Origin: Lytechinus pictus
Lineage: Eukaryota
Reading direction: 5' to 3'
Assembly (NCBI RefSeq): GCF_037042905.1
Contig: NC_087251.1
Location: 48,858,001-48,922,000 of the forward strand
DNA: 64,000 bases
Both the position numbers and the translations under genes were made by a program. Below are positions 6,154 to 54,966 of the stretch, in pieces (position 1 is the first letter of the stretch; each line of letters begins with the position of its first letter). The notes under the pieces are model-generated. The model had not been told where the DNA came from. It did not search any database and saw only the letters and a list, made by a program, of their open reading frames with translations.

Positions 6154-6364
6154 TTAATCAAATATATATTTAAATTATGGTTAGCCGAGGTAAAATTACC
6201 CTCTGAACACACTGGCAGTTGGATAGTTTGGTCAGCATATGATGACGTACGTATGACAACCCATTTCTGTATTTAATTCTGTTTATTGGTATCCAACATT
6301 CCATTCTTGATATCTTAAAGTTCCCACAAAGTATCAATGTCATGAAATCATTTTGTGTTGTTAA

Positions 6365-9673: not shown

Positions 9674-12600
9674 TTAACTGTGACTACCGATGGCAGATTT
9701 CAGATGCAGAAATGTTCTGTCAGGAATGGTCTCCAGTATATCTAGAAAGATGTCAAAATGTGATTCCTCAGTCAGTAATGTGATAAAAAGTAAGGATATA
9801 TTTCATTTTCACATTGGAGATATTACAAAAGCTTGCATTTCATCCAAAGTTGTGTAGAAATCTTTTTTGACATGAACAGACTGAAATCTGAATTTAGACT
9901 TTTTCAACATATTTTGGCAATAGAAAACACCTTTATCATGAAGGAAAGGATTCAATATAGATGATGATACTCAAGACTTTTTTATCAAGCCATTGTGGCA
10001 TCCCTGCATGAAAGTTATTATCTATCCATTTCTTTCTCTTCAGACACTGAGTGGCATGAACATATCCTTTCCCAGGGGTAGCATCATGGTATTTTGATGT
10101 GGGAGGGAGGGGGGGGCCACTCCAACCTAAAGGTGACATTTTTTTGTCAATGGAATAATGGGAGTATTGTATAGTTAACCAACCAAAAACTCTTTCATGC
10201 TTTTCTTTCTTATTTTCTCCCTTTTCTCTTTCTTTTTTTCTTTTCTCAGTATGTAATGCATGATGGGTATGTGCCATGGAGGGACCCCCATTATACACTC
10301 AAATGTCCTTCCAAGGCATAGCATTTTTATCTTTTGAGAAAAAGAACAAAGAAGGCCGCTCCAAAGCATAGAAGGAAATCTGTTTCAAAGCTTTGCATAT
10401 TTTTTGTTACGCCGTCCTGGCTGCATTGATCCACTACAATGAGCTGCAATTTTGGTGAATAATGGCCGCAGTCCGCTGACCGACCATCGCCTCTGTGTGA
10501 GCGCACCTGGCGCCCATGCCGCCGAGCTAGCTGCACACACATATGCCCGTTCCATAGCGATGCATAGGCAATCACACGTAGGCGACCCATTCCAAGGCCC
10601 CCCGTTTTCACAAACATTTGTAGTTCCGAAGACCCTCCTTTTTACAATAAGCCCGCTCCAAAGCTCTCGATTTTTGTTTCACCCGTGGCACATACCTACC
10701 ACTTTTTTTTGGTTGAGTACCCCCCCCCCCCTGGGTTTCATGATGCTTTTACCCTATTCAATCAATTCATTTATTGTATTTCAGTATTTTTATATTCTTT
10801 TAATTTCACAACAGAATTTATTTTTTGACATTTTTAGCCACAGGATTATAAAAAATCTACCGTAAAAGAAGAATATTCTTGCCTTGAGGGTGTTGCCTGA
10901 TGTGCCTCATGTCAATCTTGCCCTGCAGTGTTGGTATCTGTGCAATGGATGAATGGATACTGTATCCTTGAAATGGCAATGTAGTTAGGACACACTCTGG
11001 AGTGGGTTCTGATGATTCAAGGTGTTGGTAGTTGAGACGCTTTCTATTACCAAGGCCTGCATCTCCAGCATGCTTCTACAATATGGATGAAGAATAAGAT
11101 TGATTTTAACCATTAACGTAAATGGAAATATAAATATATCAAACATTATCATTACCAATGGTCTAAGTTAAACTGGACTTCAAAATACAGTCCAAGGGAT
11201 CAATCTAAAAAAATGAAAGTAAAATAATTATCTTAGAGTTTGCAACAGCATAAATTAGGACATTTTCCTGTCAAAGCAAAGCTATTAATAAAGGTATTTA
11301 TCTACTCACAAATCTACAACACAATCTTATCGAAAAGTTGTGCAAAATCTTAAATTCCAACATGACACCTGGGGGGTGTTTCACAAAGATTTAAGTATGA
11401 CTTATATCGCACTTAAATGCCGACGTGTACCTGAAATGCAATGCGCAATCTAATTGATCAGTACGCAGTAGTGCGCATCCTCTTTGCATGATCTGACAAA
11501 TGTGGTTATGCCTTTTATACCGCACGGAACTAGGCATTTCAGTACGACTCTAAGTCATAAAATCTTAAATCTTTGTGAAACACCCCCCGGGATGGTTTTT
11601 CATAAAGCTGTTTATAAAGTAACGCATGACTTTACTCATGACTGGAACACGATCTAAGGTGCTAAGTCAGCTATATAGGTATATAAGAACAATCACCAAT
11701 CGTGCATAAACCTATCTGTAACTTACTAACAGCTTTATGAACGGCCATCTGGTGCTCTGCAAAATAGAACACCATCACAGATATCAAGATCACTACTACA
11801 GCAATGTAAGAGAACATTCTCTCAGCAACACCTTACCAAGATTCTTGATTTCTTTGGTAGCTGCTTAGAAGGTGTCCCAGCTTCAGGGCTGTGACGTTTC
11901 AGTTGGGTAGAAGGGGTCATTTCATTCACTCTCCTCTTCTCATCTGTCACTGGTGTCTCTGCCCCCAAATCCAAGTGCTGAGATGCCTGTAGACACATCG
12001 GCTAGCAGAAAATTAAAATAAAAAAAACTCTTTCTCTTACTTACTCTTAATGCCAGAACCTACAACCATCACCATGATGACACTTTTAATATCTGTTTCC
12101 TGATTGTCTACGCACTCAACACAAGAATTATAATTATTTATTGTTTACTGCAGTTATTGTTAATTAGAATTGTTATTGTGAATTGTAAATGATTGTTTCA
12201 ATCATTACTGTACATTAAAGTTAAATCCTCATTTATGTGCAATTCGGTTGGTTTTTTTTTATTAAGAATTCAATGGTAATTCAGCCTTCATGAGTGCAAA
12301 TATTGACAAATTATTAAGAATTCAATGGTAATTCAGCCTTCATGGGTGCAAATATTGACAAATTATATCTGATATCTGGATTTTATAAATTCCTTCTATA
12401 CTTGCTGCACCATCTTTAGACCATTGGTGATGTGAACTGATATGAGATGACAAAGTGGATCCTGATCAAATGACTGGTTGTTCACGCACATTAGACTAAG
12501 TTATTTTTTTTCCCTTTGCATAAATCAAATTATGACCGGGTGATGAGCAGCCATACGTAAAGTATAATGACTGGTCCCGATTTTGAAATGAGGGTAGTTT

Positions 12601-15600
12601 ATCAAATAGAGCAATGTTGTACATAGCAATGTTTTCCCAGCTTTTTGCCAGGAGCCCCGCTTTTAGCAGGGAAGTAAATCCTTGCCATTTGATAGACTTT
12701 CTCATAAAACAAATAATACATACTATTTTACTCAGGCAATAGTATCATACTCATTACCTTCCACACAGTTCAAATGGCACTGGTTCTAATTCTCACTAAT
12801 GCCCTTTCCGATGTTTGTTATTTGTGTACCAATACTCTTCATATTAGCATGGAATTCTTGATCCAACCCACCCCCCTTGAAAAAATTAACAAATTTAAGC
12901 CACTCTATAACCCTAAAAGGACTGGGCTATTTGAGATGTATTGAGGACTGAGGGGGTTCCCCTTCTGATCTCGGCCGTTCGCGCGATCGCGCCGAAATTT
13001 GACAAACACATTCTTTACCATATAAAATACAAGCTAGTGTAAAAAAAAATTCTGAAAATGATTATTTTTTATTTATTATGAATAAAATATGCAAATTTAG
13101 TCATGAAAAACATTATTTGCATGTTTAACACCCTATTTCACTTCAAATTTTCTTCTTTTTTTGCAGATGTCATCTTTGTAAACTAATTAAGAGGATTTTC
13201 ACAAAGAAAAATTGCAAAAGCCAATTTTTCCTTATTCATTCTTAATTTTTAGAATTTATGTATTTATTTGTTTTTTCATCTTTTGTTCTTCATTGTTTTT
13301 TTCAATGGAAATTATTACAGACCATTTTACAACTAAATTAAACCCTGAATCAATTAGGCACACCAATTAGAACGAAAAATAATCGCCCTTTTATGAATTT
13401 CATCTCCCATAGACTTTGTACACAAAGTATAAAAATGAGCCATTTTCGGCATGACATTGCCTCGTAAAAAGTCACGTGACGTCGCGATGGTATACCTGCA
13501 TGTCGCGAATTTGGTCTCAAAAATTGCGCGTCCTAAAATTTTGCGCGCTATCTCTTAGGGTTAACCTATATGAATAATCTACCATAAGCATGGTTCAGAT
13601 TTATTAAGGCAGAACTGGATTGATGTGTGGCCAAAATAATAACCTTATTTAGCAGACAAACAACAAAACACTGTTTCATACTGCATATTGTTTACATAGT
13701 AAAGGCCACTTCTAAAATTCATTTTGTTACCTTCAGTGTGCATTAATGGAAACTTAGCAAGGAAAACATACTGTAAACTTGACAAATTGTTTGACTGTGT
13801 ATGGAACAGCAGTTTTTTTTTTATCATAAAATTGTGTGCTTTTCCTTGCAATCAAGTCATCTGAAAATAGTATATACATGTAAAGAGTTTGGATATAACG
13901 AGGGGTGAAGTTCACTTTTAATTTCAAAATTTGGGAACTGACCTCGAAATCTAGCAACTTCTCTGTTGTTTCTCCAGGTCCTTCTGACAACTTTCGAGTT
14001 TGCTTCACCTCCCGATTCTTTTCAGGTTTCTTTGGTTTGTGTGTTATCACCAGATCATGATCCGGAGGCAGAGATACAGCAGATACATCAAACTAAAAAA
14101 GAAAGGAAAATTGGTCACAGTATATCCGAGTATATTTTTCTGTTGTTTTTATCAAATCATCATCATCCATGATCATGATCATTATCATCATCATCATCAT
14201 CATCAAAGGTGCTAAGACAAAAGGCATACAAGCAATTTGAAATTGTGTGTGATATATTAAACGTGTAGAGACCCTGTACACTGTACAATATGCGAGGGTT
14301 TCTATGCCTAAAGCTAAGCAATAGACGGTAGGGACTTTATGTTGTGCAAACAAAGGGCCCGTTTCTTGATATGAGAAGGTAGTGAATTAGTGATGACATC
14401 ATAAGACAAATTTCCGGCCTTGCTCACAAAGTTAATGGAATTTAAGATTCTTGAAAATAAGTCCAATTTGTAAAAGAAAAAAAATAATTCCATATATTTA
14501 TATTGTTGACCCATTTTATAAAACAAATGATGCATAGGTTCAGGTTTGTGACTGTAAGTGGCAATGCAGCATCTTGTAAAAATGCAACAAGTATACCTTT
14601 GAGTACATCCATCACCAGTAACACACACACACCTGTGAATTATTTGTGTATTTATTGTGCATGATAAAATATTCACTACTTAAATAATAAGCATTTCTGA
14701 ATAATTAATCAATACTTGTATATATTACTTACAGAAAGATCCATAATATGGCACCCATGGGCCTTCCTGGAATGTCTGCTTGACTTCTGGGGTGTACTGG
14801 TTGCCCTGACAGTCTCACCAGGACCCACAATACTGGCTTCTATTGCAGATGTCTGTTAGGATCAAGTGAAATAATAATAATAATAATATTAATAATAATA
14901 ATCATGATAATAATAATGATAATAATAATAATAATAATAACATTAATTATATTAATAATAAAAATACTAAAAATAATAATATTGATAATGATAATAATAA
15001 TAATAACAATAATAATAATAATAATAAGTAGTAGTGTGAAGTTCCTAGTTGCACTTGAAATTACTTGGTGCTTTTTGTTAGAGCAAAGTTATTCAAGAAA
15101 AAATACGGACTTGATCCTGTTTAGAGGAATAATAATAATAATTGGCTTTTATACAGCACGATATCAATCTATGACTGCTCAAAGTGCTTCACAATTATTA
15201 TTACCCAGTCACTGGATTCATAGCATTTTTAGCAGCCTCTTAGGCACACACTTGCCAAATCAACAATGACAATTTTTTCCCCTACCAGTACCCAATTACC
15301 ACCTGGATGAGAGTGGCAAAGTGTGGATAAACGCCTTGCAAAAGGACGTTAGGCCATGGTGGGATTCCAACACATGACCCTCTGATTACAAGGCAAGAGT
15401 CAGAATCGCTACACCACAGCGATTCCATAATGAGAACATATTCCAGTGACTTAAAACAATTGTCAAATTGCTTAGGTCATATCTTGTTTGTTTTTTTAAT
15501 TCAAACATGAAATGTCTTGTCTCAGTCTATTACTTTTGGGGGGTTGGTTGTTTCTAATTATTTAATTTTCATAAAAACATATATAAAATGTATAACACAT

Positions 15601-21600: not shown

Positions 21601-24600
21601 AGTCTGCTGTGCAAACCTAGTCTGCAGGCACAGACCCTGATTGAAACTTTGATCAACAAGTGGGTCTCCATGCGAAGACTAGCACATACAATGTAAAATT
21701 TTGCTGTTTCCTGAGTGAGAGGGCCTTCAGTACACAAGGCATGAGTAGGCTGCACATTCAGACCCTTACCTTGAGTGAAGACTTTGCACAGCAGACTAGT
21801 GTAGACCCTTCACTCAAGGAAAGCTGTCTGAATATGCAGCCTAAGGTTTTTGCCAATGATTTGTGTACAGAAGGTCCTTTTGTTTAACAGAAAGTTGTAT
21901 TCGTGCTAGTCTTGTGTGAAGACCCACTTGTGGATCAAAATTTCAATAAGGGTCTGTGCATGCAGACTACATGTAGAAGGCAATGTTCTCTTCACGTGTT
22001 ATTATGTAATGGCAGGTTTTCACATAAAAAACCCATATTAAAGAAAAAAGAAAAATAGTGTATTGCAAAGTTTCTTTTTCATGTTGAATTGAAAAGCTTC
22101 ATTTTGTACATATAATGCTCCATCATGTACTATAATGTATTTATGAACACTTTGATGAATATTTTATACCCTGGGCAATTTAAAGAATGAAGAATAGTTT
22201 AAATAAAAATGGAAAGTATAATATTTGAGGATATCAATTTATAACTTTGTATTGAAAAACAGAATATATCACTCTTTATGAAAAACGAAAATTCCCGGCA
22301 GCTGAAAATTCCCGAAACTTCCCATGGAATTTTTCAAAAATTTCCGGAAAGTTTCCAGCCCTTTGCAACCCTAACTTAGACCAAGGTCTAACTCTGTGGT
22401 AAAATTATGGGAAGCCAAAACTACTGCAAATCTGTTAACATTGTTTGTGCTTATGCTAAATTTGCTATTTTCTCATTCTTGAATACTAAAGAAAACAACT
22501 TTTGTAATTATTTCTTGACAGCAATGAGTGTAAAATAAGCAGATAACTTGAACTTGTACTGTTATAGATTCATGTCATTTGTGTCAGCCTTTAAATCAAA
22601 CCAGAATTCAAACTAGAGCTATCACTGAAAACGATTAATACCCCTACCCTAGGCCATTACCATGGCAACAATATCCAACACATTAAAAAAAAAACCATCT
22701 TGCCCATCTTTACCCCAAGACCTATGCGTGAGCAAAATATCATGAGAATTGGTTAAATACTGATGAAGTATTTCGAGCTGGAAGATTTTTGCCTATTTTC
22801 TGACATATAATATATTGTTACCATGGCAACATGATATCTAAATCATGCAAAAATATGTCCTGCACATCTTTACCTCAAGACCAATGTGTGAGCCACATTG
22901 CATGAGAAATAGGTTGAAATCTTATCTAGTAATTCGAACCGAAAGATTTTTATCTAATTTGGGGCATATAATGTTTTTACAATGGCAACACAATTTCCGA
23001 CAAACACAATATATGTGTTTTGCACATCTTTATCTTATAACCAATGCCTGAGCCAAATTTCATGAGAATTGGTTGAAAATTGTTGAATTAAAACTGCAAG
23101 TGTTTTACCCAATTTTGGTGACTACCTCATAACCTATGTGTGAGCCAAATTTCATGAGACTTGGTTGAAAATTGATAAAGTAATTAAAACTGCAAGTTTT
23201 TACCCAATTTTGGCAAAATACTATGTCGTTACCATGGCAACATGATTTCTGACACACAGAAAAATATATTTTACACATCTTTACATCAATACCAATGTGT
23301 GTAACAAATTTCTTGATAATTGTTTTAAAAACTGAGGGAGAAGTTAGAACTGCAATATTTTTGCCAAAATATACCTTTACCATGGCAACAAAATATCTGA
23401 CACATGCGAAAAAATGTGTCTTGCACATCTTTACCCCAACACCAACATGTGTTCCAAGTTTCATGAGAATTGGTTAAAAACTGAGGAAGTAGTTTGATGC
23501 GCAAGATTTGCAACGGACCGCCCACCCAACTGTACACTGATTCCTATAATTATACTCCCTTCAAACTTCTTTTGGGGGGTATAAATATGGGCCATAGTAG
23601 TCAATTACCTTTTTCAGAATGCTATTAGAAGCAGAACGATGAGGAAGGGATACATTAAAAGGAGTGCTCGTGTCGGCATCTTCCAGGTCTATCATTTCTT
23701 GATTGAATTTCAGCTGGAATGAAACTTGCTTCTTTCCATCCTGATGAAAAAAGAAAATGATGTGACATGGTAATCAATTCAATTCAATTTTCAAGACCAA
23801 AATAGCTCCATATTTCACCCTAAACTTCCTGGGTATTCTATTCGGACTAAAAGTGATCTTAGTATTGACCATACAGTCATGTTTTTGAGCAATTTGGGTC
23901 TGAAATTGACTTTATGATGTTGAGTAATTTTGTAACCATGTACCCAGGTGTAGCAAATTTGGTATAAGAAGTTGTGCGAGACCTTAAAGTAAAAAATCAA
24001 TCAGCGGCGCAGTAAAAAAAAATTGCGCAAAAGCTTTGTTGCGAAAAATGTTGAGGTGGGCCATTGTGCCCCCCCCCCCCTCCCCCGAGTATAAGGGTTA
24101 AAAAGAGAAAGGAAGAGGTGATAACAAATACATCACTTGAAAAAGAATGACGGAGACCATGGAGACCAATGCTCTCTTTTCATAAAAAAAAACCCAAAAC
24201 ATCTATGTATGCACCCCCCCAAAAAAAACAAGTGGAATGCCTCTGGCAGTCTCGCCTGCATTACGCGATTCAATATAACAGTGCTGACTGTAAAAACAAT
24301 TATTGAATAATTATTCACAAAAACACCATTCATATGATAATAATTTATACTATGTTCATTGACCCTAAATGACCTTGATCATGCAACCCGAATCTCATGC
24401 AAGATGTTCAATGATACTTGATTACTCTTATGTCTTAAGTTTCATGAACTAGATCCCTAACCTTTCAAATATTATGATGGCAATTCAACAAATACCCCCA
24501 ACATGGCCAAAGTTTGTTGACCCTAAATAACCTTTGACCTTGGTCATATGACCTGAAGCACGCATAGGATGTTCAGTGATACTTGATTATTCTTATGTCT

Positions 24601-33600: not shown

Positions 33601-36600
33601 TACAACGCCACAACATCAATTATCATATCTATGTCGTTGACATCCATCTCTATCTCTCCTTCAAACCAAATCAGGCTGATGCAACAAATGCAATCGCCCT
33701 TCTTGAGAATTGTTAAGCTGACATTCACTCCTGGCTGGATAGTCATTCATTGAAATTTAATCCCTCCAAAACTGAGTTCCTTCTATTTGGTTCAAGGGCT
33801 CAACTTTGTAAGGTCAAGTTGTCATCCATATCTTTTTCGGAGTGTACCATTAATGTGTCCCAGACGTGTCGTAACTCTCTTCTTTCACTGCGCCCTGGGC
33901 ACTCTGCCAAGTGGATTTGGCGCATTACAAATCACATATATTATTATTATTATTATAGTTATTCTAACTTGCATGCTTACTGTATGCCCTCCAACTCGAT
34001 TTTAAAACAAGCAGGGCCTTCTGTTTTAGCAATTCACAAGAAAGAGTTGAAGTCCAAAATATCGCGCACCTTACGTACGGGACACTCAGAGATTTTCAAC
34101 CTCTGAAAAATATTTTAAAAAGCATTTGAATTTTTCTGTTATATAGTATGATTGATACCTATGAAAAGAATATTGTTTTAAAGTTTGATGACATTTGACC
34201 TTGGATTAATTATTTTATCAACAAAAAGTACCAACTTATGCATGGGACCACAAAAAATTAGATTAAAAAAAGTTCAAGTTAAAAATTATCTGCAAGTATT
34301 TTATTGATGAACTTGTGTTTAGCTGTGAAGAAATGTACAATACTGAACATCATTTCAGTAAGTTTTAATAATTTAATTCAAAAGGATATTAAACAAGGCA
34401 TTTTTGTTGATGTAAAATTTATTACAAAAAGTACACCTTACGTCCCAAATGAGCACCTATGCTCATGAATGTAATAATGAATATCTCCATAGCTTCATAT
34501 TCAGATCTACAAATTAAATTACACTTTGTAAGAAAAAAAAAACGGACTTATAAGTGGTCACTACCCAAGTTATGCAACCAAATTAAAGCTATTCTTTTTC
34601 ATTTATGAGAATTAATTAATAAAATAAAAGACTGATTAAATTTCAACACCTAGTTTTGTTTTTTCGGAAGTCAAAGTAAATTCATTATAGAGCTTCTTAA
34701 AATATGATTGGTCAATGTTTGATAAAAAAAAACATAAAAAACATACTAAAATCCTTATGTATGGGACACCTGGTTCACAGAAATTGCATAATTTGCATAA
34801 TTAATGAACTGATCCTGTCTTATCAATTGCAAATTAAACCAGACCATAGAGGGTCCATGTCCATAAAGGAACTAGATCAAAAATAAACTGATATTAGGTG
34901 AATATTTTTAGATCATCCCATACGTACGGTGCTATTTCAAATTATGCAAATGAGGGCATCCATTGTTGCATAAATTTGCATGATTTACAATATTGAATTA
35001 CTGGAAATAGATTATTTAACTCTTTAGCTACAATATTATAGCAATTGTTTTTGCATTTAGTCGAGATGATTTTTTTTTACATCTGAGGGGACATTACCTT
35101 GGACTTGCCCATATATTTTGGGAGCATTTTCTCAACTATCATGTATACAATTGGCAGTAATGATATATTATTTTGACAGCTCCTGTAACAAAATAGTATT
35201 TTTACCATTGCTTTGATTTGTAAGGAATATTGTTTCAAAACTATTCATTCTAAATCATCTCCAATATCTCTTCAGGGATCAAAATATAGACCAGCCTTAA
35301 AAATTTTCCTTGAGTGTGAATAATGGGAGACATAACATTTGTTCCTGCAACAATTGCCCTGGGCTTTCTTTTGTCTAAAATGTAGGGTAAGGGTTGCAAT
35401 ATGGTTTAATATTAGGTTTAGGGTTAGGTTAAAGGAAGGGTATGTTAAACCAAGGGTTGAAGTTGGTCATTTGATTACTGTGTGGAATTTATAGTGGAGC
35501 AAATGTTGCCAGAGCAAATGTCATGGAACCAAATAATCTCATAATAATCTTACCTGAGAGGTAAAGAATGGAGTCGTCAATATCATCACTTGTATCTTCA
35601 TTAGGGGAAGTTCTAGCCATTGGAGAGTACTGTTTTCTGTATCTCATGCCCAATCCCTTTCCTTCTACTTTCAAAGGAGTTGGCTTCTGTAAACATAAGA
35701 AATTACTATGAAAGGATACTATGATCACCCCCTTAATCAGTCAAAATACAGAAAACAATTAAATATAAAGAATTTTTTTTTAAATTAATACATACTGGAT
35801 ATTAGCAAGGATTTTCCTTTTTTTAATACTTTCCTGAACACTCTTACAATACATATTTTTCATTAATAGGAAGAACAAAAGTTAGCTCATGGAAAGGTAT
35901 GGGTTGGAAGAAACTATTGTGAAAGTGGTAAAGAGAAGGGCATCGAGATGGATGGGCCATGTGTTGAGGGGGGATGATGAACCTATGAAAAGAGCATGGG
36001 ATCTGGAAGTGAATGGCATAAATAAAAGGGAATAGAAGACCAAAGATTACATGAAAGGTATGATGAAGAAGAAAAACAGCAAGTTTGGTCTGAACAAGGA
36101 GGATGCCGAAGGCAAATTAGTAGAAGGAGGAATTGTCATCATGGCGCGGAAGTCAGATACCTTTTGTAATAGCAAAAAATTACTAATATAAAATATAAAT
36201 TAAACAAGTGGAGCGGCTCTGGCAGTCTCACCTGCATTACATGATTTAATATAGCAGCAGAGCTGACTTTGAAAACAACTATAAAATAATTATTCACAAA
36301 ACACCATTCATATGATACAATACTATGTTCATTGACCCTAAATGACATTTGACCTTGATTATGTGACCTAAGACTTGTCAGTGATACTGGATTACCCTTA
36401 TGTCCACAATTCATAAACTATATCCATAAACTTTGAAAGTTATGACAGCATTTTAATAATTACCTCCAACATGGCCAAAGTTCATTGACCTTAATGACCT
36501 TTTACCTTGGTCATGTGACCTCAAACTTGCACAGGATTTTCAGTGATATTTGATTACTCTTATATCCACAATTCATAAACTATATCCATAAACTTTGAAA

Positions 36601-39600
36601 GTTATGATAATTCAACAAATACCCCAACTTTGGCCAAAGTTCATTGACCTTAAATGACCTTTGACATTGGTCATGTGACCTGAAACTCGCACATGATGTT
36701 AAATGATACTTGATTATGCTTATGACCATGTTTTATGAATCAGATCCATAAACTTTTGAAGTTATGATGGTAATTCAACAAATACCCCCAACTTGGCCAA
36801 AGTTCGTTGATCCTAAATGACCTTTGACCCTGGTCATGTGACTTGAAACTCAAGTAGGATTCCCTGGGGGCCACTTACATTGATGAGTGGATACCATGCA
36901 CGACCAAAAAAACATGTAAAAATTATGTCTTTTTTAAGATAGGACATGTTACATACGTAACATAATAAGGGTGTAAAAAACACTAAAATAATGGGAAAAG
37001 GGTATTTATTTCACTAGGTAAGCTATGTGTTTAGGGTTAAATTTGTGAGGGTATAAAAAGTTAAGACTAAAATGTTTTATAAAGGATATTCGTTTAATCG
37101 TTTTGCAACAGTCAAAACTACGTGTTTAGAGTACGATATGCGCGAGGTGTGGCTGTACTAAACCCAATGATGTAGTAAAGGTAAAACCAACGACCGACGT
37201 CCGTGACATAAAACAATAAAAATATCGCTGTACTTGTATAGGGGTTCAATTCAGGAAATACTTGCCGAGAGTATCGTTTAGTTTCCAATACTTGTTAAGG
37301 GGTGCATTTTCAGAATATGGAAAATACTTGTTTAGGGTGCTTTTCGAGACCCCATGGTCGCGCATGGTATCCACTAGTCAATGGAAGTGCCCCCCCCCCC
37401 CCCCCCCCCCCCCCCGGAGTAGGATGTTCAGTAGTATTTTATTACCCTTATGGCCAAGTTTCATGAACTAGGTCCGTAAACTTTCTAAGTTATGACATTT
37501 CAAAAACTTAACTTTAGGTTTAGATTTCAATATTGACTCCCTCAACATGGTCTGAGTTTATTGACCCTAAATGACCTTTGACCTTGGTTGTGTGACCTGA
37601 AACTTAGGCAGGATGTTTAGTAATACATGATTAACCTTATATCCAAGTTTCATGAACCAGGTCCATACACTTTCTAAGTTATGCTGTCATTTCAAAAACT
37701 TAACCTTCGGTAAAGATTTGATGTTGACGCCGCCGCCGTTGGAAAAGCGGCGCCTATACTCACTGTGCTATGCAGGTGAGACAAAAATCTTGCCACAAAC
37801 TATCTGGCTAAGTTATTTGTGAGAAAAAAAATATGGCAATATGCTGATGACAGATTTTTTAGATTGCTGCATTGCTCTCTCAACTGAAAACAAATTCTTA
37901 CCCTTCGTGATGACTTTTGTGAGACAGGTTTTGGCAAAATATTCATCGTGACTCTGGAAAAAGACAAATCAAACCATAGACTTATTTGCATTACTTGTCA
38001 TTTAAAAAAGCATGACAAAACCCAACAAAAATAGAATATCTCATGTTAAAGTTCATTTATTTCTTTCTGCAATTACTAAAAGATACATAGTTTAGTTTAG
38101 TTTATTGTTCTTTATTAAAAAAATCACACCCGTCAAAACCGACGGCCGGCCTAAGAAGGTCTATGATTGATGACATCAAAATGTATAAAAGTCACATACA
38201 ATTACATGAAAAAGGAAATCATAAGGTATTCACAAAGTAAACTTAACATTTTGGGAATAAATAGCACAAAAAAACCCAAAAATGGTGAAGTAAGAAATAT
38301 TATTTTTTGAATATATTATTTTTTTACGAAGAGTGAGAATTTCATTTGCATATCTGGCTAATGAGCAGCAGAGTGTATCAGAAGACATAATAAAAATGAA
38401 TTGTTGGTAAGTGGTTAAATCATTGAACTCAGGGTAAATGTGTTTGATAGTATTGAGTAGTGGCAATCTGTAAATTTCATAGGCAGGACAAATCATAAAA
38501 CAATGGAACTCATCTTCAATATTATCCGAATTACAAATGATACAGAAGCGTCCTTCATAAGGTATATTTTGATAATGACCAGTTTCAATTGCAATAGGAG
38601 CACAACCACATCTAAACAATGCAAGTGCACTTCTATTTGATCTATTTTGGCATTGAATAGTATAGCTTGAAGTGGATGATTCCTTAAAGTTAAGATATAT
38701 GTGTTAAGTTTGTTTTTTGCATTTGCTTTTCTCCTTACATCATCAAAAATACACTTTTTCCATTTATCCTCAATATATACTTCACAGGCATCAGAAACTG
38801 ACTTTACAAAGTTGTCAGTACTTGCAACATGAGCCAAAGGTTCAATATGAGTACATTGTAACTTTACAAATATAAACTCTTTTACCTTATAACACCAGTT
38901 TTTAATTCCATTATTTGCCAGTAACTTGGACCAAACAAAGATTTTACTTGGATAGCGCACAGAATTGAGTTTACTTAACTTACTCCACAACCTTACAACA
39001 GATTGAGTTTGGTGATAAAAAGGGGGATCCCAACACATTTCACCCATAACAGCATTGTTAGGTGTGCATCTACCAACCCCCAATAAAACCTACTGGGGTG
39101 TACATGCTCTAATAAATACACTATTCTATTGATAGAAGAAAACTCCTCTATGCCCCGAAGACCGCTAGCATATTGCAGGATTGGTAATACCATAGAGTCA
39201 TACAATTTAGTATAAGCGAACCGCCCATAAGTTTAAACTTACTAATAATAATGACTAAAGCTCGAGAAGCTGATTGAGCCAGCATTTTAGTACCCTTTTG
39301 AAATATAAAGAATTTGTCAAACCAAAGACCAAGGTATTTGTATGAGTCAACAATATCAAGATTGTGACCACTAAGGTGAAAAGAAAATTTTGTCTGTTCC
39401 TGGCTCTTCTGTCGAAAATGTACAATTTGTGTTTTTGAAGAATTTGATTAAATTCTCCATTTAAGGGCCCATGCGCTAACTTTGTCTAGCATACACTGAA
39501 GATCATTTTCACTTTCAGCTATAAAAACCACAATATCATCTGCATACATAAGCATATCAATTTGTGTATCCAGTACCTGAATACCTCTATTACATAGCCT

Positions 39601-45600: not shown

Positions 45601-46970
45601 ACTTTCAACAATATGTTTCTTTGATTTTTCTCTTTGATATGGATTCAGCTAGTTTCAAGGGTTTCATTCTCCTTTAAGTATCTTTCAAATGGTTCTTAAT
45701 TCGTTGCAAGAACAAAAGAGGTGCAGTCTATGGACAGAAGACACAAATAATAGAAAATGCCTCTGACAAAATACTTACATGCATTATTAAAGAGTGGGGT
45801 AGAAAATTTCATCACATTCAAGTGACTTGCTATTACCAAACTTTTTTAACTCATGGTTCTGGAAATGAGCACAACATAATCATAATCAAAAGTGATATTC
45901 TTCCCCAGTGATACAAGAAAGGAAGGAAATTGGATGCTTACTTTGATTCAAATGTATCAGCCAATTCTCCTTTATCCGGATCACCAGTCTCACTTTCTGC
46001 AATGGACTTGAGGGCTAAATAATACACGATAAGAAAACCTCAAGGGTTTAAAATTTCAACAAGAAAAAAGTGATTTGAACAGAAAGGCTTTACTAAATTA
46101 GTGTGTACATTTCTACAAGTTTTGCAGTATGGGGAACAACATTAACTCTTCTGAATCTGAATACAGGAATTAATATATTCAGTATTATGTCTGTATATTT
46201 CACCTAGTACAGGAGAGATCACTTATTAGAAAATGATAATAATAATTAATTATAAAAATAACAGTAAATTGGACTATATTGCACCAAATCCACTCTGTAA
46301 AGAGCTCAATGTGCTTTTCTTAAAATGTTAAAGGAAATTAAAGAGAATTGAACAAAAATGTATTTAGGTGAACAAGTAATTGACTTTGAAAGTAACTTCT
46401 GGAAAAGAAAGGTGAAAGAATCACTGCGGAAAAGGATTAATACAGTACTTAATAGAGACTTTGCATATACATTGTCTCAAGAACGAAAGCTCGCCCAAAC
46501 TAAGGTTGGTTGAAGCTTCAAAAAAATTATTTAATTGATAATCCCAAAGTTTTTTTGTATGTTTTAAGGTGGTTTTTTTTTCAAAGTTTCAGAAGTTCAT
46601 ATATTATAACACTAAGTAAATTTGTGATGAAATTGACTTAGACAATGTTATTCCTAAAGTGCATTAAAAAATTTACCATTTGAGAGAATTGACCATGTAG
46701 AACAAAATTATAGGAAAATAAAAGATTTTACCCAAAAACTACAGCTTTATTGAAAGAAATTTAACCATTCTTGGGTAATCTAAAAATGTCAATAAGTAAT
46801 CAGTCAATCATATCAGCTAGCATCATGGATGAAAAGATGACCCTTCACATACCAGTCACTTTTTCTTTCCGTTTTGCAGCTCTACATATTTGCAGTTCAG
46901 AAAATGCATCAACATCAGCCTTCTTGGAGACGGGCTTTAATCTAGAGTATGTGTTGAAAAAGCGAGGCAT
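9674..46970 (-). CDS. 14-exon gene for a ~546-aa disordered protein; candidate MEIKIN-like meiotic kinetochore factor
   Basis: Coding exons 5'->3': 46970-46853, 46014-45942, 37953-37902, 35686-35554, 29734-29618, 28835-28740, 27486-27370, 26726-26620, 23740-23609, 14852-14733, 14092-13943, 12001-11837, 11075-10883, 9741-9674. Total 1641 nt, all phases compatible, no internal stop; 12 GT-AG introns and 1 GC-AG. Starts MPRFFNTYSRLK and ends PQDILETIPDRTFLHLKSAIGSHS*. The gene model is well supported; the MEIKIN identity rests on short recalled motifs, so no symbol is given. Confidence 0.75.
10265..10736. mobile_element. Remnant of a non-autonomous DNA element with a C-run terminus
   Basis: Inverted pair GGTATGTGCCATGG / CCGTGGCACATACC followed by GAGTAC(C)n-TGGG; same style of end as the element at 36861-37417. 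Confidence 0.5.
11371..11751. mobile_element. Two abutting small Harbinger-like MITEs
   Basis: GGGGGGTGTTTCACAAAGATTTAAG / CTTAAATCTTTGTGAAACACCCCCC, immediately followed by GATGGTTTTTCATAAAGCTGTT / AACAGCTTTATGAACGGCCATC. Confidence 0.7.
12259..12365. repeat. ~52-bp tandem duplication
   Basis: TTATTAAGAATTCAATGGTAATTCAGCCTTCATG(A/G)GTGCAAATATTGACAAA twice. Confidence 0.9.
12911..13560. mobile_element. piggyBac-like non-autonomous element
   Basis: CCCTAA...TTAGGG termini with ATAA/TTAA flanks; related fragments near 9128 and 23818-24098. Confidence 0.55.
14869..15028. repeat. (AAT)n microsatellite
   Basis: Imperfect AAT run just upstream (in host orientation) of the acceptor of the minus-strand exon at 14852. 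Confidence 0.95.
15128..15422 (-). mobile_element. tRNA-derived SINE
   Basis: Minus strand reads TGGTGTAGCG (A box) ... GTTGGAATCC (B-box-like), then a conserved-core-like CCAGGTGGTAATTGGGTAC and an (ATT)n tail; a related core remnant lies near 47940-48060. Confidence 0.75.
16159..17336 (+). mobile_element. HINE/Helentron-associated (pearl/Tsp-like) element with ~162-bp internal tandem repeats, copy 1
   Basis: Starts AAACAAGTGGAATGCCTCTGGCAGTCTCGCCTGCAT; core repeats GACCTTTGACCTTGGTCATGTGACCTGAAACTC spaced ~162-192 bp; GCC microsatellite; terminal hairpin/subTIR GTCTCGCTCTGCTATGCAGGCGAGAC; sits in an A-run with no TSD. Confidence 0.8.
17631..17671 (-). ncRNA. Minimal type I hammerhead ribozyme (U3-A8 variant) in the inverted pLTR arm
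   Basis: Reverse-complement copy of 20495-20535. Confidence 0.7.
18306..20297 (+). CDS. Penelope-like RT-GIY-YIG endonuclease ORF (N-terminally truncated, otherwise open)
   Basis: LLKKGLAFA, PADKG, YGLPKIHKPGIPLRPIVS, SFDVVSLFTNVP, GAAMGSPVS, WKRYVDD, VYRKPTHTD, GVVYNIPCQGCDGSYIGET..RISEH. The frame is open from 18306 (SSRQIT...). Confidence 0.95.
   Translation, partial: SSRQITSTEEQLLKKGLAFAVSPPKLPITEIVAKVETAVKYIDPVSADAARKDVDSILQRARPPKPNTTREMRDALKTLKNDDSITILPADKGSATIILDSTAYEDKMTELLSSGPYKMLKKDPTDRMCRKLTSTLLALKKDKVLDEATYKKIKPTQKQPPRIYGLPKIHKPGIPLRPIVSCIGSFAYNLSKYLADILSPLTNCSEHTVSNSSEFAEFTSEQTVNEQESMISFDVVSLFTNVPIEGACSTALQRMQSDPTLSERTTLMPEQIAELLEFVLRSTYFLYRGSFYEQTEGAAMGSPVSAVVANLYMEGFEQNALPKCPSTCHPRVWKRYVDDTFIIVNRSETDSLLSYMNSQQPSIQFTLETEQGGKLAFLDTLVQRHEGGKLSTSVYRKPTHTDQYIPYDSHHDKSVKKGLVKCLFDRAARIITHPPELPKERAHIRGALYSNGYPRRFIKNTFKKKQPPRDQKVFKTCTVLPYIDGLSQQLKRRLEGHGIRTVFRSDTTLHKQLVHPKDPIPDHRRDGVVYNIPCQGCDGSYIGETARPIVERISEHKRDVRLQRTDTSAVAEHAWEKQHHPDWEGVQCIAKERHWYTRRIKEAISIRLCPNNFNRDSGIDIPDFWMRTIRQHNTPLPGSARRPDRSRPRTRDRSASQPPPTGN
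20319..20470 (+). promoter_or_regulatory. Putative pLTR Pol II promoter (3 octamer sites + TATA)
   Basis: ATTTGCAT (reverse ATGCAAAT) three times between 20319 and 20375, then TATAAATA at 20463-20470, upstream of the ribozyme. Confidence 0.5.
20495..20535 (+). ncRNA. Minimal type I hammerhead ribozyme (U3-A8 variant) in the Penelope pLTR
   Basis: Stem I UCAC/GUGA; core UUGAUAA(A); stem II GAGUUGC-AGCG-GCACUC; GAAA; palindromic stem III AGCU; predicted cleavage after C20531. Confidence 0.72.
21618..21969. mobile_element. MITE with TAG...CTA termini (Academ-like)
   Basis: TAGTCTGCAGGCACAGACCCT / AGGGTCTGTGCATGCAGACTA; ~70-bp imperfect TIRs. Confidence 0.6.
22610..23584 (+). mobile_element. 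HINE-like element of a second family, with CCATGGCAAC-core tandem repeats
   Basis: Starts AAACTAGAGCTATCAC; ~160-bp units with TACCATGGCAACA / TTTCATGAGAATTGGTT; ends in a CCCTTCAAACTTCTTTGGGGGG hairpin. Confidence 0.65.
24226..25091 (+). mobile_element. HINE/pearl-like element, copy 2
   Basis: Same 5' AAACAAGTGGAATGCC start, core repeats and 3' ATGCAGGCGAGAC end as 16159-17336. Confidence 0.8.
25368..25958. mobile_element. Kolobok/T2-type MITE (family C, copy 2)
   Basis: TTAA flanks; reverse-orientation homologue of 5560-6153. Confidence 0.85.
27848..28591. mobile_element. Non-autonomous DNA transposon with 4-bp TSD (Sola2-like)
   Basis: TIR GGGCAGTTCCAAG / CTTGGAATTGCCC; CAAA direct repeat on both sides. 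Confidence 0.65.
29144..29431. repeat. ~145-bp tandem duplication
   Basis: ATACATTCAATAAAT...CAGTACAGGCAGAGATTATC...CAGTAATCAAG twice. Confidence 0.9.
29467..29598. mobile_element. Small Harbinger-like MITE (CAG TSD)
   Basis: GGTCCTGTAACACAAAG / CTTTGTGTTACGGGACC flanked by CAG; related copy near 43833-43964. Confidence 0.7.
30067..32662 (-). mobile_element. CR1-clade LINE, 5'-truncated, young
   Basis: Intact ORF2 remainder, short 3' UTR and (GAT)n tail at 30067-30082. Apparently inserted into the arm of an older MITE (GGTATTCTG at 29791 ... CAGAATACC at 32698). Confidence 0.9.
30182..32644 (-). CDS. CR1 ORF2 (C-terminal part of APE endonuclease + reverse transcriptase)
   Basis: MGDFNFPDINW, LGLSDH, KSPGPDGLHP, NYRPVSLTS, YLDFRKAFDSVPH, GIPQGSVLGPVLF, FADD, EKDLGV, RPHLEY, ERVQRRATK, RRRRGDMI, TRGHCLKL; 820 codons with no stop. 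Confidence 0.93.
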   Translation of the reverse strand: MASENREKHLLIMGDFNFPDINWKRSHVNSTSNNTSYMFLTATQEAFLHQHIYEPTRYRHGQNPNVLDLAFTCTADDLISSIDYLPPLGLSDHVCILTKLDILQEKDKLPERESRPNLQKGDYNSMNETLEKIDWDKDFTGKTCEQAWTSLFHNIKEGVENYVPVRKCNTDKRRNIYVSKAILKLSKKKTRYWKRYSDVNRTRDEREIDYRQYKRVRNQLRKETRAASNNFELDLVENIGHNPKAFWRYANSKVKSKGRITSLMKGNGQLTESDSEIASVLNDYFSEVFTREDMDSIPDIQVPLRSDLPTLSEVKVQEIDVSKKLKNLNTNKSPGPDGLHPKVLYELAESIAKPLTLICNKSMQEGKLPSDWKQGTVVPIHKKGSRTQASNYRPVSLTSVAGKLMEKILRDVIVTHLLRNDLLTQSQHGFTPGRTCATQLLYVLEEWSRLLDEGETIDVLYLDFRKAFDSVPHQRLLLKLKAHGIEGKLLNWIRAFLIGRVQRVFVNGESSDWSPVTSGIPQGSVLGPVLFLIYINDLPSDVINSRVVLFADDTKLYSTGNTPSQTSGLQDDLNYLIEWSERWQLPFNDDKCKVLHIGRRNLGKSYHMHGKDLQVVEAEKDLGVIVDCQLKFHQHVSSAVSKGYQLLAIMKRTFTQLTRTTLPLLFKTLIRPHLEYGSILWHSRFKEDARRIERVQRRATKLVRELKNVPYQDRLKELNLYSLLYRRRRGDMIFVHQLMHGLINLPLDHFFTKSVGRSTRGHCLKLQKEHCRLDIRSKSFSRRGIDDWNSLPESIVVLPTTESFKRHVDKHWWDHRFDLP
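33465..33957 (+). mobile_element. L2-clade LINE remnant with internal deletion
   Basis: GVPQGSVGGPTLFSIY, degenerate YxDD (YVVD), KFNPSKTEFL, one stop, then a jump to a 3' end GCGCATTACAAAT + (TAT)n. Confidence 0.75.
36202..37786 (+). mobile_element. HINE/pearl-like element, copy 3 (interrupted)
   Basis: Same termini and core repeats as copy 1; split by the insertion at 36861-37417. Confidence 0.8.
36861..37417. mobile_element. Non-autonomous DNA element with G/C-run TIRs and 8-bp TSD
   Basis: AGTAGGAT at 36853-36860 and 37418-37425; arms CACTTACATTGATGAGTGGATACCATGC / GCATGGTATCCACTAGTCAATGGAAGTG. Confidence 0.8.
38090..42930 (-). mobile_element. Full-length but degenerate non-LTR retrotransposon (RTEX-like)
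   Basis: ORF1 at 42655-41885. Broken ORF2 has APE (GSGGVGF, CVCYLPP, DFNARIG), RT (YRGITL, KKAFDRV, GVKQGCLLSPLLF, YADD) and the C-terminal IETG..C..C..IEDEFH..CPAY motif. (TAAAC)n tail; possible TSD GA(T/C)ACATA at 38082-38089 / 42931-42938. The clade call is tentative. Confidence 0.85.
41885..42655 (-). CDS. LINE ORF1 (coiled coil + L1-type RNA-binding domain)
   Basis: LERYSRRCNLLL, IAHRLGKRKEGAIRPIIFK and FRNGKLFIDG motifs, directly upstream of ORF2. Confidence 0.8.
   Translation of the reverse strand: MELRDRASGNAGTNKDKMKSRSASFVVDEPGFEQLVGRSLKSILAGQESMKACIHERKSKQAELESSIEFESARTTDFEKTVNFLSKDMSTCVAKIGHLQAVNNKLERYSRRCNLLLCKFGPEKKDEVPSVIVINVLKDFLSIDSEVEIAHRLGKRKEGAIRPIIFKVSTVEVRDRILRSKRKLDAKTSFYIKQDETPADCMAKQQLKPIAAEAYKAGKKTLFRNGKLFIDGAEYRNPEPPPPPADGKVTPEDPHV
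42973..43757 (+). mobile_element. HINE/pearl-like element, copy 4
   Basis: Same termini and core repeats as copy 1. Confidence 0.8.
44251..44986. mobile_element. Non-autonomous DNA transposon with AATT TSD (Sola1-like)
   Basis: Perfect 17-bp TIR CTCGCTACCCCAAATAG / CTATTTGGGGTAGCGAG; AATT on both sides. Confidence 0.75.
45090..45673. mobile_element. Kolobok/T2-type MITE (family B, copy 2)
   Basis: TTAA flanks; reverse-orientation homologue of 1914-2499. Confidence 0.88.
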
Positions 46971-49290
46971 TCTTCCAATCTAGCCTTCAAGGTATACCGG
47001 TCATACTGATCAAAAATTGATAGTTTGTTTGGTAAATCTTGTTATCTGGGATCTATATTGTGAAGAAAGAAAGATTTAGGAGATGAGATTAAAAAGGGTA
47101 AAAATTGTATCTACATATACTGGGTGCTCTCATCGATTTTGCCCTGATATGCTAAAAAATGCCCTCGAAATTAAAAAGGAGCCCCTTAAAATCCCCATTC
47201 ACTGCAATTATCCAATGTAGTGAATTCAGGCAGTAGGTTGTCAAAAGGAGCCCCTGAACACATAAATATAATTTTTTGCCCGACTACATGTGATTTACAT
47301 GGCTTTTAATTATGCATTAAGTAACTTAAGTAACATATTACACATCATTTCATTCATTTCTCATAAACCAACATAGGAATTTACAATGAACAGCATATGA
47401 GGGAGCAGCTCAAAGTAAAATCATAATAATTGATACTTTATAATTCATAAATCTGTTAACCCCAGACTGAGTTTGTTGATGTCTGACTCATTTTTCTGCT
47501 TTTATCAAAACTAACTTGCCCTCAGAATGGCCTTTCCTTCTAGAGTTGCAAATGAAAGTCTAGCTCCCTTTTTCCATAGTTGTCAGTCATTTCATTTTTT
47601 TTTTTTTTTTTTTTTTTGCTGTTGACTTTGTTGCTGTTTTGATTTTATTGACATATGGATGCTTGACAGAGTATTGTTTTTATGTACCTCAAACATTCAT
47701 ATTCATGAAAGGCCAGTTTTCAGGCTGAAAAAATAAATATTAGGTACAAAAAGGGCAGAAGCCCCAATAACGATGATTCCAATGTGCCCATTCAGGTTTA
47801 TATGAGCATAATTGCATCAAAAAGACTTCTAAAGAAACTCAAGTTCACGTTTTGAGTCTCTGAATTTGTAAATGTGCTGTAAACAATAAAGAATATAGGA
47901 TTTGTATCCACCTTTTTAGGTGCTCAAGGCTCTCCTTTATTACCCCGGCTAAGCTAGTATACCAATTCCAGTACTCACAGCTTTTGGTGGAATTACACTG
48001 TACTTCCTGCCAGTACTCATTTACCTCACCTGGGTTGAGTGCAGCACAATGTGGATGATTTAGGGGCTATATCCCTACCTCCCACTAAACCATGGCATAA
48101 CAGGGCTAAATTGACTGTGTTAGATAGGTCTAGACTGGGCTTAGCTCACTCATCCAACATACAAGATTATAACCTTGTTCTCTGTTAGGACTCCCTGTGT
48201 GGTGAAATAAGGTTGGCAATGTTTGGCTTGTTTTCTCTTGTTCTCTGGAATAAACGCTTACTGGTAATCTTTTGCACTGACAGTTTCCATTATAGCTATT
48301 CATCATAGGACTTGACTCTACAGTAAATTGAATTTTTGGAATTATTTTTTTCTAAATGAAAAAGAGAGATTGTTTGGTTCCAATTCAGACCAACTTTACT
48401 ATCCACCAATAGAGGGCCCACACAAAAAATGTACATACATTTTTTTTTTAGCACTCTGGTGAATAAACAAAAGTTAGCCCTAAAGACCCTAAGATATTTG
48501 AAAAACAAATATCATTACTGAATGGAACCAAGTATTTTTGGTTACAAAAATGATATTTTATATGTTGCATAGCTCGATCTACCTACGATTCACCACAGAC
48601 AGGGAAGGTGCACTGTACAAGTGGCCTAGATACAACATTCTTTGAATTTATCATCTCATGATTCAAAAATTATCTGGGTCACTAAACACAACTACCGTAT
48701 TAGGGTTCTAGGTCTAGTAAAGTACTTCTCACTATATCTGACATCAACAGTAATTATAAGGCTAACTTAACTTTAATTATTTTTTCATTCCCACACATTC
48801 ATCTAAGATTAGACTTCCAAGATCGGTTTTATAACTGTTCATCAACATGGTTCTGACATTAAAAACACAATGGATCAAGATCTAACTGGATCTAGATATA
48901 TAGAGGTCTACAGAATACTAGCTCTAGAGCTATTTAAAAAGAGGTTGTAGAGATAGGATAATATTGTGCATGAAGAAAGTAGTTATTCTAGGGTCTAGAT
49001 CTAATTAAACTTTTTGATTCTAGCCAAAGTTATGACCAAGACCAAGTTAATTAGAATTTCTCAAAACAAAGAAAGCCTAACCCAAGGAAATTACAATTTG
49101 TAAAGAGAACATTTGGTCCAATATTAGACCAGACCAAGAAATTAGGAGTTCACTTCCCTGGTTAGACCTAACAAAGTTACATGTAACAATAGATCTAATG
49201 TTAAACAGCAGACTTTTGTTAATGATTCATTCCCTTTGCCTTTTAAGTTTTATTTTTGGAACTAATTAGAATAGAAGAGGTGATGATCTG

Positions 49291-54935: not shown

Positions 54936-54966
<31 letters not shown>

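Follow-up and report, generated by a model that had tools for sequence, protein, structure and literature searches.

Vertebrate MEIKIN was reportedly described by Kim et al. in 2015. The literature treats it as a vertebrate factor that has nothing but the polo-box motif in common with its counterparts in yeast and fly, and the MOKIRs (Spo13, Moa1, and Matrimony) have been described as lacking sequence conservation beyond that motif. Repo-Man/CDCA2, Ki-67, KNL1, and BubR1 are phosphatase scaffolds, disordered chains that carry docking motifs for PP1 and PP2A-B56. In the accessible sections of a preprint (bioRxiv 10.1101/2020.11.29.402537), the features of MEIKIN are a separase site, an STP motif, and two C-terminal hydrophobic motifs (ICCII and DIII) that bind CENP-C. 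The human protein, going by partial published descriptions, is 373 amino acids (aa) long, with the C-terminal motifs 33 aa apart and the D 6 aa from the end.

The window analyzed here, 64,000 nucleotides of the Lytechinus pictus genome, contains a gene on the minus strand with 14 coding exons, from an ATG at 46970 to a TAA at 9674. Spliced in silico, these exons gave 1641 nt (546 aa plus a stop) with 0 internal stops, as the earlier note had predicted, and the product equals RefSeq XP_063959054.1 (L. pictus LOC129264086, "uncharacterized") at 546/546 residues. Given this identity, the locus is an annotated uncharacterized gene and not the hidden one that had been announced; RefSeq and the window may have the same assembly as their source. 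Splice sites were GT-AG in 12 of the 13 introns, with donors agreeing with the consensus at a mean of 6.8/9 positions versus 4.4 at background GT sites, and with 71% pyrimidines at acceptors versus 49% in the background. Intron phases run 1,2,0,1,1,1,1,0,0,0,0,0,1. The last intron (9742..10882, GC-AG, phase 1), which lies within the D525 codon of PQD, needs a GC donor at 10882; read through unspliced, it gives HPQ-GKNILLLR-stop. Isoform pairs of Antedon and Diadema part at the equivalent place. The GC donor had gone unmentioned in the earlier note, one of whose eight quoted peptides (HPQDIL) crosses intron 13, the other seven being contiguous in the window. Read mapping covered 3100-14868, that is, 4 of the 13 introns. 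In X1, a run typed as RNA by tool guess, one contig spans the exon 12-exon 13 junction precisely as modeled and departs from exon 13 at the GC donor (10883), where 85 of its letters are still to come versus the 68-nt coding part of exon 14; no further junction of the gene was found among the best 15 of 314 joints in the mapped region. A candidate extra exon near 29100 was rejected, as every one of its three frames hits a stop within 27 codons and RefSeq does not include it. At its 5' end, exon 1 includes a 5' UTR part (46971..47051), called from the sequence, with a 5-codon upstream ORF from 47004; a likely acceptor precedes it, so at least one further noncoding exon should lie upstream. For a possible gene neighbor on the upstream side, Pfam matched nothing in the candidate exons at 61848-62725.

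Orthologues are present in all five echinoderm classes, with protein lengths of 543-1059 aa (species counts omit the ENA fragments P0015 and P0018, the 140-aa fragments P0002 and P0004, the A. rubens pieces, and extra isoforms). Three of these loci are not named in the main text of the echinoderm unknown-gene survey PMC9552553. From N to C terminus, the conserved part of the protein is a string of short motifs: TYS[RK], LxxIxE, a separase site, RVxF plus SILK, STP, and PxC...PQD. As a prospective check, a search using only the central block, made after the motifs had been listed, brought in the Asterias and Antedon orthologues, and both have the N- and C-terminal motifs. Motif blocks spanning 113 of 546 residues hold 34 of the 38 invariant alignment columns, a figure that carries no test weight because the blocks were defined after inspection of the alignment. 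The L. pictus protein is predicted to be disordered, AlphaFold2 giving a mean pLDDT of 42.6 with 429/546 residues below 50 and a pTM of 0.16 (on a shallow alignment of 7).

All docking motifs were read from sequence. Exon 1 (coding part 46853..46970, aa 1-40) encodes NTYSR (aa 6-10, 46955-46941), a YSR/Pds5-type motif, and TYS[RK] was found near the N terminus in 9/9 species. The published Pds5-binding consensus, [RK][ST]Y[KSTGA][QRKA], is strictly satisfied in 4/9 species (5 counting a second Holothuria sequence); the L. pictus protein, with N at position 1, fails it, and Antedon reads KTYSR, the five letters of the Wapl motif. The Pds5-binding cohesin regulators Wapl, Sororin, Haspin, and ATRX resemble the family in this motif and differ in their folded domains, which are absent here. 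Exon 2 (45942..46014, aa 40-64) encodes LKSIAE (aa 41-46, 46012-45995), of the PP2A-B56-type LxxIxE, strict in 8/9 species. That the N-terminal motifs fit known Pds5 and PP2A-B56 docking motifs was missed in the earlier note, where they were set beside RVYTRKK and LSKIAE, presumably the human MEIKIN sequences. Exon 3 (37902..37953, aa 64-81) precedes exon 4 (35554..35686, aa 82-126), in which an acidic S/D/E-rich tract begins. The predicted separase site, DIELPR (aa 156-161, 29645-29628; cut after R161), lies in exon 5 (29618..29734, aa 126-165). The published separase consensus [DES]-phi-ExxR occurs exactly once per protein in 9/9 species, with E158 and R161 invariant; a single match of this kind occurs in 9-14% of shuffles. 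An LPE separase exosite directly after the site was rejected, since it is missing in Diadema and in every non-urchin.

Downstream, exon 6 (28740..28835, aa 165-197), exon 7 (27370..27486, aa 197-236), and exon 8 (26620..26726, aa 236-271) are followed by exon 9 (23609..23740, aa 272-315), which encodes a PP1-type pair not given in the earlier note: KQVSF (RVxF, at 275; 23731-23717), then SILK (at 311; 23623-23612), both conserved in 9/9 species. The STP of exon 10 (14733..14852, aa 316-355) is a predicted Plk1 polo-box docking site (aa 334-336, 14798-14790); S334-T335-P336 is invariant in 8/8 aligned sequences and STP is found in 9/9 species, although STP by itself occurs in 28-63% of shuffles and each motif singly is common. 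A second STP (aa 296-298) is present in only 3/4 urchins, being absent in Diadema. Exon 11 (13943..14092, aa 356-405) contains the end of an invariant SFD[VI]S.V.LP block, exon 12 (11837..12001, aa 406-460) a TP....KR block and a basic tract, exon 13 (10883..11075, aa 461-525) KRLxY, PECV (11000-10989), and the PQ of PQD, and the coding part of exon 14 (9674..9741) aa 525-546 and the stop. The C-terminal pair PxC[CIVS] plus [PA][QSE]D[IV] was found in 9/9 species, 32-43 aa apart, with the D of the second motif 7-21 aa before the protein end. The first motif reads CCI in only 2/9 species (Amphiura PECCIT and Antedon PQCCIE), and PECVL in L. pictus. Seven regions had been matched to MEIKIN in order, and six of them are conserved across echinoderm classes in that order; the seventh, LSQMSN in exon 6, is conserved in 4 urchin species only and drops out as a MEIKIN motif.

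The four MEIKIN features known from the accessible descriptions have counterparts, in MEIKIN's order, in 9/9 species. This ordered pattern was present in 9/10 proteins, the exception being an Antedon isoform without the last exon, and arose 0-2 times per 20,000 shuffles of each protein, with motif patterns that were loosened after the family had been inspected; a chance rate of ~5e-5 per protein makes one four-feature match possible in a 25,000-gene proteome. As in MEIKIN, so far as the published portions describe it, a single conserved separase site lies ~150-160 aa from the start (in urchins; predicted cut site at aa 161 in L. pictus versus 154 in human), STP lies downstream, and a similar pair of short hydrophobic motifs, about 33-37 aa apart, sits at the extreme C terminus. 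Translation of a published MEIKIN primer gives PANASEI, so that in human an E stands two residues ahead of CC. Human MEIKIN intron 7 follows c.638 in phase 2 (exon numbers are printed for c.497 and c.664), versus phase 1 for intron 7 here, in a region that is unalignable. For Xenopus MEIKIN, a preprint (bioRxiv 10.64898/2026.09.11.750869) gives a predicted N-terminal KEN box; a degron-like N-terminal PL.NISN is found in 4/9 echinoderms and is absent from the L. pictus protein, in which there is also no FGF, FxF, or KEN. Compared with MEIKIN as partially described, the echinoderm proteins are longer (543-1059 versus 373 aa), have an acidic P6 in place of a Cdk-site serine and one invariant STP in place of three, and carry RVxF, SILK, SFDVS.V.LP, TP....KR, and KRLxY blocks without counterpart in those descriptions. 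The first six introns of human MEIKIN presumably have phases 1,2,0,1,1,1, as in the window gene; we also take human intron 5 to lie a few codons past the separase arginine and the last human intron to be phase 1, inside the D367 codon.

Because the conserved docking motifs align in order with those of MEIKIN, the gene is a plausible, though unproven, invertebrate MEIKIN counterpart, and we put at roughly 65% the probability that it is MEIKIN's echinoderm orthologue, acting as a disordered scaffold at meiotic kinetochores. The resemblance to MEIKIN pointed out in the earlier note is partly supported, by the four ordered features (as published in part), but no profile or language-model search linked the family to vertebrate MEIKIN, and no search of any kind found a significant match to it. 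A four-urchin profile run against 1.84 billion representatives gave 8 matches at E<=0.001, 0 of them vertebrate, and the orthologues of Antedon and Asterias were missing from its list too; in each of two word-indexed profile searches, no vertebrate protein was among 7,999 scored candidates. All named matches from the three profile searches were echinoderm, with no non-echinoderm bridge (hemichordate, amphioxus, or other) among them. These searches failed to recover orthologues already known from echinoderms, so their silence on other groups is weak evidence. ESM Atlas, queried with the whole protein and with aa 325-546, returned no MEIKIN cluster; its leads, a bacterial hypothetical (0.79) and TICRR fragments (0.75-0.76), lay below the Atlas chance level and were rejected. 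A text search with five short human motifs gave no MEIKIN paper by title among the matches listed.

An echinoderm-restricted cell-division scaffold that acquired its motifs independently, with no descent from a MEIKIN gene, is possible, although we consider it unlikely. Such a protein would act in mitosis or meiosis, using Pds5, PP2A-B56, PP1, and Plk1 to control cohesin or kinetochores, much as Spo13, Moa1, and Matrimony do. The exclusively echinoderm named matches, the shortness of the motifs, and the PP1 pair, for which the accessible MEIKIN descriptions have no counterpart, all speak for it, and convergence on such a design has a precedent in the MOKIRs because their sequences are conserved only in the polo-box motif. 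However, independent acquisition must also account for where the single separase site lies, for how the two hydrophobic motifs are spaced and placed at the terminus, and for the order in which all features occur, and the gap outside echinoderms counts for little when searches overlook known orthologues within them. The MOKIRs themselves resemble the family in being disordered, in having a polo-box STP motif, and in their proposed meiosis I role, but share only that motif with MEIKIN, whereas the echinoderm family shares several collinear motifs; Matrimony, moreover, has a SAM domain, and the L. pictus protein has none (Pfam negative).

Descent from another disordered cell-cycle protein is very improbable. 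Sororin or Dalmatian is suggested by the YSR motif (in Antedon with the letters of the Wapl motif), Repo-Man/Ki-67 by RVxF with LxxIxE, KNL1 by SILK with RVxF (both in 9/9 species), and a Treslin/TICRR tail by TICRR fragments as the top eukaryotic rows of both Atlas searches, at scores below chance. Pfam gave no relevant match for any of 13 exons searched singly (one hit, E 0.21) or for 3 whole proteins, no family at E<=10 for the L. pictus protein, and just 3 unrelated single-member matches (E 0.17-4.7) in the 7 orthologues of the alignment, and hence no Sororin, PP1-binding, RWD, kinase, or SAM model. Sororin/Dalmatian is further opposed by the missing FGF and FxF; KNL1 and Repo-Man/Ki-67 by unmatched Pfam domains. 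In KNL1, SILK precedes RVxF, the reverse of the order here. Repo-Man/CDCA2, Ki-67, KNL1, and BubR1 do resemble the family in PP1- and PP2A-B56-type docking motifs on a disordered chain, but here there are no matching Pfam domains and no MELT repeats, and there is a conserved separase site. Against PDB sequences, a three-urchin profile gave two chance matches (E 0.14-0.18) and the seven-sequence profile none.

If the gene is the MEIKIN orthologue, motif biology suggests how it might work. The C-terminal PxC...PQD pair would bind the C-terminal domain of CENP-C, a Cdk1-primed S-pT335-P would dock the Plk1 polo-box domain, RVxF and SILK would bind PP1, LxxIxE would bind PP2A-B56, and TYS[RK] would bind Pds5. 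Separase would cut after R161 at anaphase I, freeing 161 aa with the Pds5 and B56 motifs, and the remaining 385 aa would keep those for PP1, Plk1, and the kinetochore. A further-reaching version, which we put forward tentatively and think doubtful, makes MEIKIN at least as old as the deuterostome ancestor and a two-part switch, in which the N-half guards centromeric cohesin, the C-half holds Plk1 and PP1 on CENP-C, and separase parts them. TYS[RK] would then fill the Wapl-binding pocket of Pds5 while LxxIxE brings PP2A-B56, protecting cohesin directly, until one separase cut at anaphase I takes the protective half off the kinetochore. The Maier preprint (bioRxiv 10.1101/2020.11.29.402537) leaves the activity of the N-terminal Meikin fragment open; the switch, if real, would give that fragment a function and explain why uncleavable Meikin disturbs meiosis II.

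A true orthologue in all echinoderm classes would date MEIKIN to early deuterostomes and reveal the motifs retained by selection over roughly 480 million years, among them Pds5-, PP2A-B56-, and PP1-type motifs not assigned to MEIKIN in the accessible published descriptions. If the gene is not MEIKIN, it still encodes an unstudied conserved scaffold in which motifs for cohesin, kinase, and phosphatase come together. Meiosis is routinely imaged live in starfish oocytes, and with the Patiria miniata orthologue known (LOC119746471), localization, cleavage, and motif mutants are directly testable.

Expression of the window gene appears restricted, which may be a further likeness to MEIKIN. In 3/3 raw RNA runs, whose tissues are not given, depth was 0-3 in four repeat-free exon bins of the gene and, in the exon bins of SDE2 next door, 30-113 (X8 and X9) and 5-16 (X11); the spliced transcript is present in one contig set (X1, tissue likewise not given). 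On the single side identified, there is no microsynteny with human MEIKIN, the neighbor being SDE2 downstream here and FNIP1 in human. A probable long 3' UTR (7894..9673, minus strand) lies tail to tail with SDE2. Within it, X1 contigs cover 7942-8532, 8841-9164, and 9234-9578 at depth 6-10 (8.8 for the coding contig), X8 and X9 have low one-strand reads at 8209-8601, and AATAAA occurs at 9329, 8837, 8098, and 7894.

Spliced on the minus strand, 14 exons (46970-46853, 46014-45942, 37953-37902, 35686-35554, 29734-29618, 28835-28740, 27486-27370, 26726-26620, 23740-23609, 14852-14733, 14092-13943, 12001-11837, 11075-10883, and 9741-9674) gave 546 aa and a stop codon, in line with the 14-exon, 546-aa frame of the earlier note, and a six-frame search placed seven of the eight quoted peptides contiguously on that strand, with the eighth spanning the last intron. 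Twelve of the 13 introns were GT-AG and the last was GC-AG; models from L. variegatus and S. purpuratus likewise give HPQDIL across this last junction. A query with exon 13 recovered five proteins among nine candidates, every one from sea urchin. The best match, RefSeq XP_063959054.1 (Lytechinus pictus), was identical to the model at 546/546 residues, and the supposedly hidden gene is therefore already annotated, as 'uncharacterized'.

Other models of the gene differ. The N-terminus of the older RefSeq model XP_054757928.1 is formed by frame 42667-41885 (240/253 aligned residues identical), the first frame of a broken LINE-like element in intron 2 (~38200-42700, minus strand), and this model is apparently a chimeric annotation of the gene. 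RefSeq models of 140 aa from two urchins (P0002, P0004) begin at the exon 12 methionine, and the Asterias rubens orthologue model is split in two (P0024/P0025); these are likely fragments or haplotigs, and may alternatively represent a short C-terminal isoform. An upstream ORF of five codons (47004-46987, minus strand) ends 16 nt ahead of the start codon, and a putative acceptor near 47052 would imply a further non-coding exon upstream. A GC-richer stretch picked out by eye at 50100-50230, a possible promoter of the gene, carries a pair of CCAAT boxes (24 nt apart) plus a TTTGAA on the minus strand.

A three-urchin profile search gained Diadema, and a four-urchin profile run against 1.84 billion representatives gave eight matches at E ≤ 0.001, gaining Patiria (1e-19), Amphiura (7e-10), Holothuria (3e-8), and two unnamed short fragments. 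Searching with a profile of a 103-aa central block brought in two more species, Asterias amurensis (4e-20) and the crinoid Antedon (4e-14). Together with the urchins, these matches place the family in all five echinoderm classes (nine species, each counted once); the profile searches returned no named match outside echinoderms. Between-class identity was 28-30%, mostly within short blocks. AlphaFold2, run on seven sequences, gave a mean pLDDT of 42.6, and confidence rose somewhat at aa 21-40, 351-370, 471-500, and 511-540; these values fit a disordered protein, although the alignment is shallow.

Read from the N-terminus, the conserved motifs were TYS[RK] (in the first 30 aa), LxxIxE, exactly one [DES]-phi-ExxR (a predicted separase site), [KR]xVxF, SIL[KR], STP followed by SFD[VI]S, TP....KR, KRL-x-aromatic, PxC[CIVS], and, close to the end, [PA][QSE]D[IV] (in isoform X1 of Antedon). 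All occurred in 9/9 species except strict LxxIxE (8/9; Holothuria has Y at position 1) and KRL-x-aromatic (8/9). RVxF and SILK are PP1 docking motifs, and S-pT-P is the polo-box domain motif. Because the motif list was fixed before Asterias and Antedon were retrieved, both by the central block alone, the presence of N- and C-terminal motifs in 2/2 is a prospective check. The point of divergence between the Antedon isoforms is precisely PE|D; the short form then closes with GK-stop, the outcome that intron retention would have here. The Diadema isoforms part at a point with the same D next, and from both we infer an early origin within echinoderms for the intron that splits the aspartate codon of PQD. 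A degron-like PL.NISN was observed at aa 75-130 of starfish, brittle star, and crinoid models (P0014, P0022, P0016, P0027), and not in urchins or Holothuria.

Human Meikin, a 373-aa protein called a vertebrate factor, has a conserved ExxR (151-154) at which separase cuts; its STP sites (T251, T264, and T276) bind Plk1, and 333-ICCII and 367-DIII bind CENP-C (10.1101/2020.11.29.402537). The separase consensus is [D/E/S]-phi-ExxR, bare ExxR being common (PMC12609080, in part). In Xenopus MEIKIN, excerpts describe retained separase and STP sites, a predicted KEN box, and partial cleavage only (10.64898/2026.09.11.750869). A published MEIKIN primer (PMC11304724, in part) translates to PANASEI, consistent with E ahead of ICCII in the human protein.

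Four published MEIKIN features (separase site, STP, and two C-terminal motifs) have echinoderm counterparts in the order proposed in the earlier note, whereas LSQMSN has a counterpart only in the four urchins. The C-terminal motif pair lies 32-43 aa apart in echinoderms versus 33 in human, and the distance of the aspartate from the C-terminus is 7-21 aa versus 6. This ordered four-feature pattern, relaxed after the family had been seen, arose in 0-2 of 20,000 shuffles per protein, and with two N-terminal motifs added in 0 of 20,000, holding in 8/10 real proteins; shuffles, the only control used, are a lenient null. The human N-terminal motifs likened to TYS[RK] and LxxIxE are those quoted in the earlier note (RVYTRKK and LSKIAE), and the first six and last human intron phases, which may match, carry no weight as evidence.

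We consider the product very probably a phospho-regulated chromosome-segregation scaffold, and put the probability that the gene is a MEIKIN orthologue at roughly 0.65; since the direct sequence test was inconclusive, it is not filed as a MEIKIN member. Against orthology, no profile or language-model search with the echinoderm family reached a vertebrate MEIKIN, the human neighbour is FNIP1 versus SDE2 here, and the sole human intron phase compared (intron 7, phase 2; PMC13218795, in part) does not match intron 7 of this gene. Convergence on MEIKIN-like motifs, with no common descent, is the stronger rival, and we hold it to be rather unlikely. Membership of another family is improbable; Pfam, PDB, and ESM Atlas searches gave no usable match. 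Among the matches listed, including sea urchin, echinoderm, and amphioxus literature, titles and abstract openings held no report of an invertebrate MEIKIN orthologue, and earlier literature or orthology databases may already extend the family. Review excerpts (PMC7614391, PMC7617577) either give the MOKIRs a shared polo-box motif only or name only Spo13, Moa1, MEIKIN, and Matrimony as members.

As a MEIKIN orthologue, the protein would act as a kinetochore-tethered scaffold recruiting Plk1 to CENP-C during meiosis I, and one separase cut would re-tune it. LxxIxE is the PP2A-B56 docking consensus. The Pds5 consensus, to which TYS[RK] is assigned, is [RK][ST]Y[KSTGA][QRKA], with KTYSR in Wapl (PMC12264150, in part); it was matched in four of nine species, the window protein missing at the first position. 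In every species the predicted cut would part the Pds5- and B56-type motifs from those for PP1, Plk1, and CENP-C, which suggests, as speculation that we regard as doubtful, that cleavage might remove a cohesin-protecting half.

Four runs were aligned to 3100-14868, an interval with exons 10-14 of the gene plus the 3' end of neighbouring SDE2: three raw RNA runs (X8, X9, X11; 6%, 6%, and 25% of each used) and X1, a set of contigs that the tool guesses to be RNA. In the raw runs, SDE2 exon bins had depths of 30-113, 39-113, and 5-16, with its intron skipped by 75, 107, and 16 reads; bins with exons 10, 11, 12, and 14 of the gene had depths of 0-3, and exon 13 bins 2-4 on both strands, read as repeats. 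The gene was thus expressed far below its housekeeping neighbour in 3/3 raw runs of unstated tissue, a result neutral as to germline bias. A 954-letter X1 contig joins 12001-11837 to 11075-10883 gaplessly and stops at the GC donor, so that at least one of 13 junctions has direct support, and one further junction end is supported. By length only, its 511 letters before exon 12 fit exons 8-11 (509) and its 85 after exon 13 fit exon 14 (68 coding).

Intron 9 of the gene also holds a retroelement (17490-20676), presumably Penelope-like, which looks recent. Its 810-nt arms show 100% complementarity, and its reverse transcriptase frame is 663 codons long (18306-20297; RVT_1 E 5e-8). Intron 4 holds a minus-strand LINE (30182-32683) with an 833-codon endonuclease and reverse transcriptase frame. 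A plus-strand element at ~54090-59780 has, by eye, terminal direct repeats of ~280 nt; a frame of 549 codons includes a zinc knuckle (E 6e-6), and neither of the two frames scanned gave a reverse transcriptase match. Segments 61848-62102 and 62606-62728 (plus strand), possible exons of an upstream neighbour, had no match in a Pfam search. The end of SDE2 (329-4374, plus strand, 3' UTR to ~7800; PF13297, E 6.7e-29) lies tail to tail with the gene, its last intron confirmed by reads. Within its 3' UTR, an inverted-repeat element of ~600 nt (5556-6154) is skipped, with ends TT..CT, by 12 X8 reads, 29 X9 reads, and one X1 contig, and is probably a polymorphic insertion.
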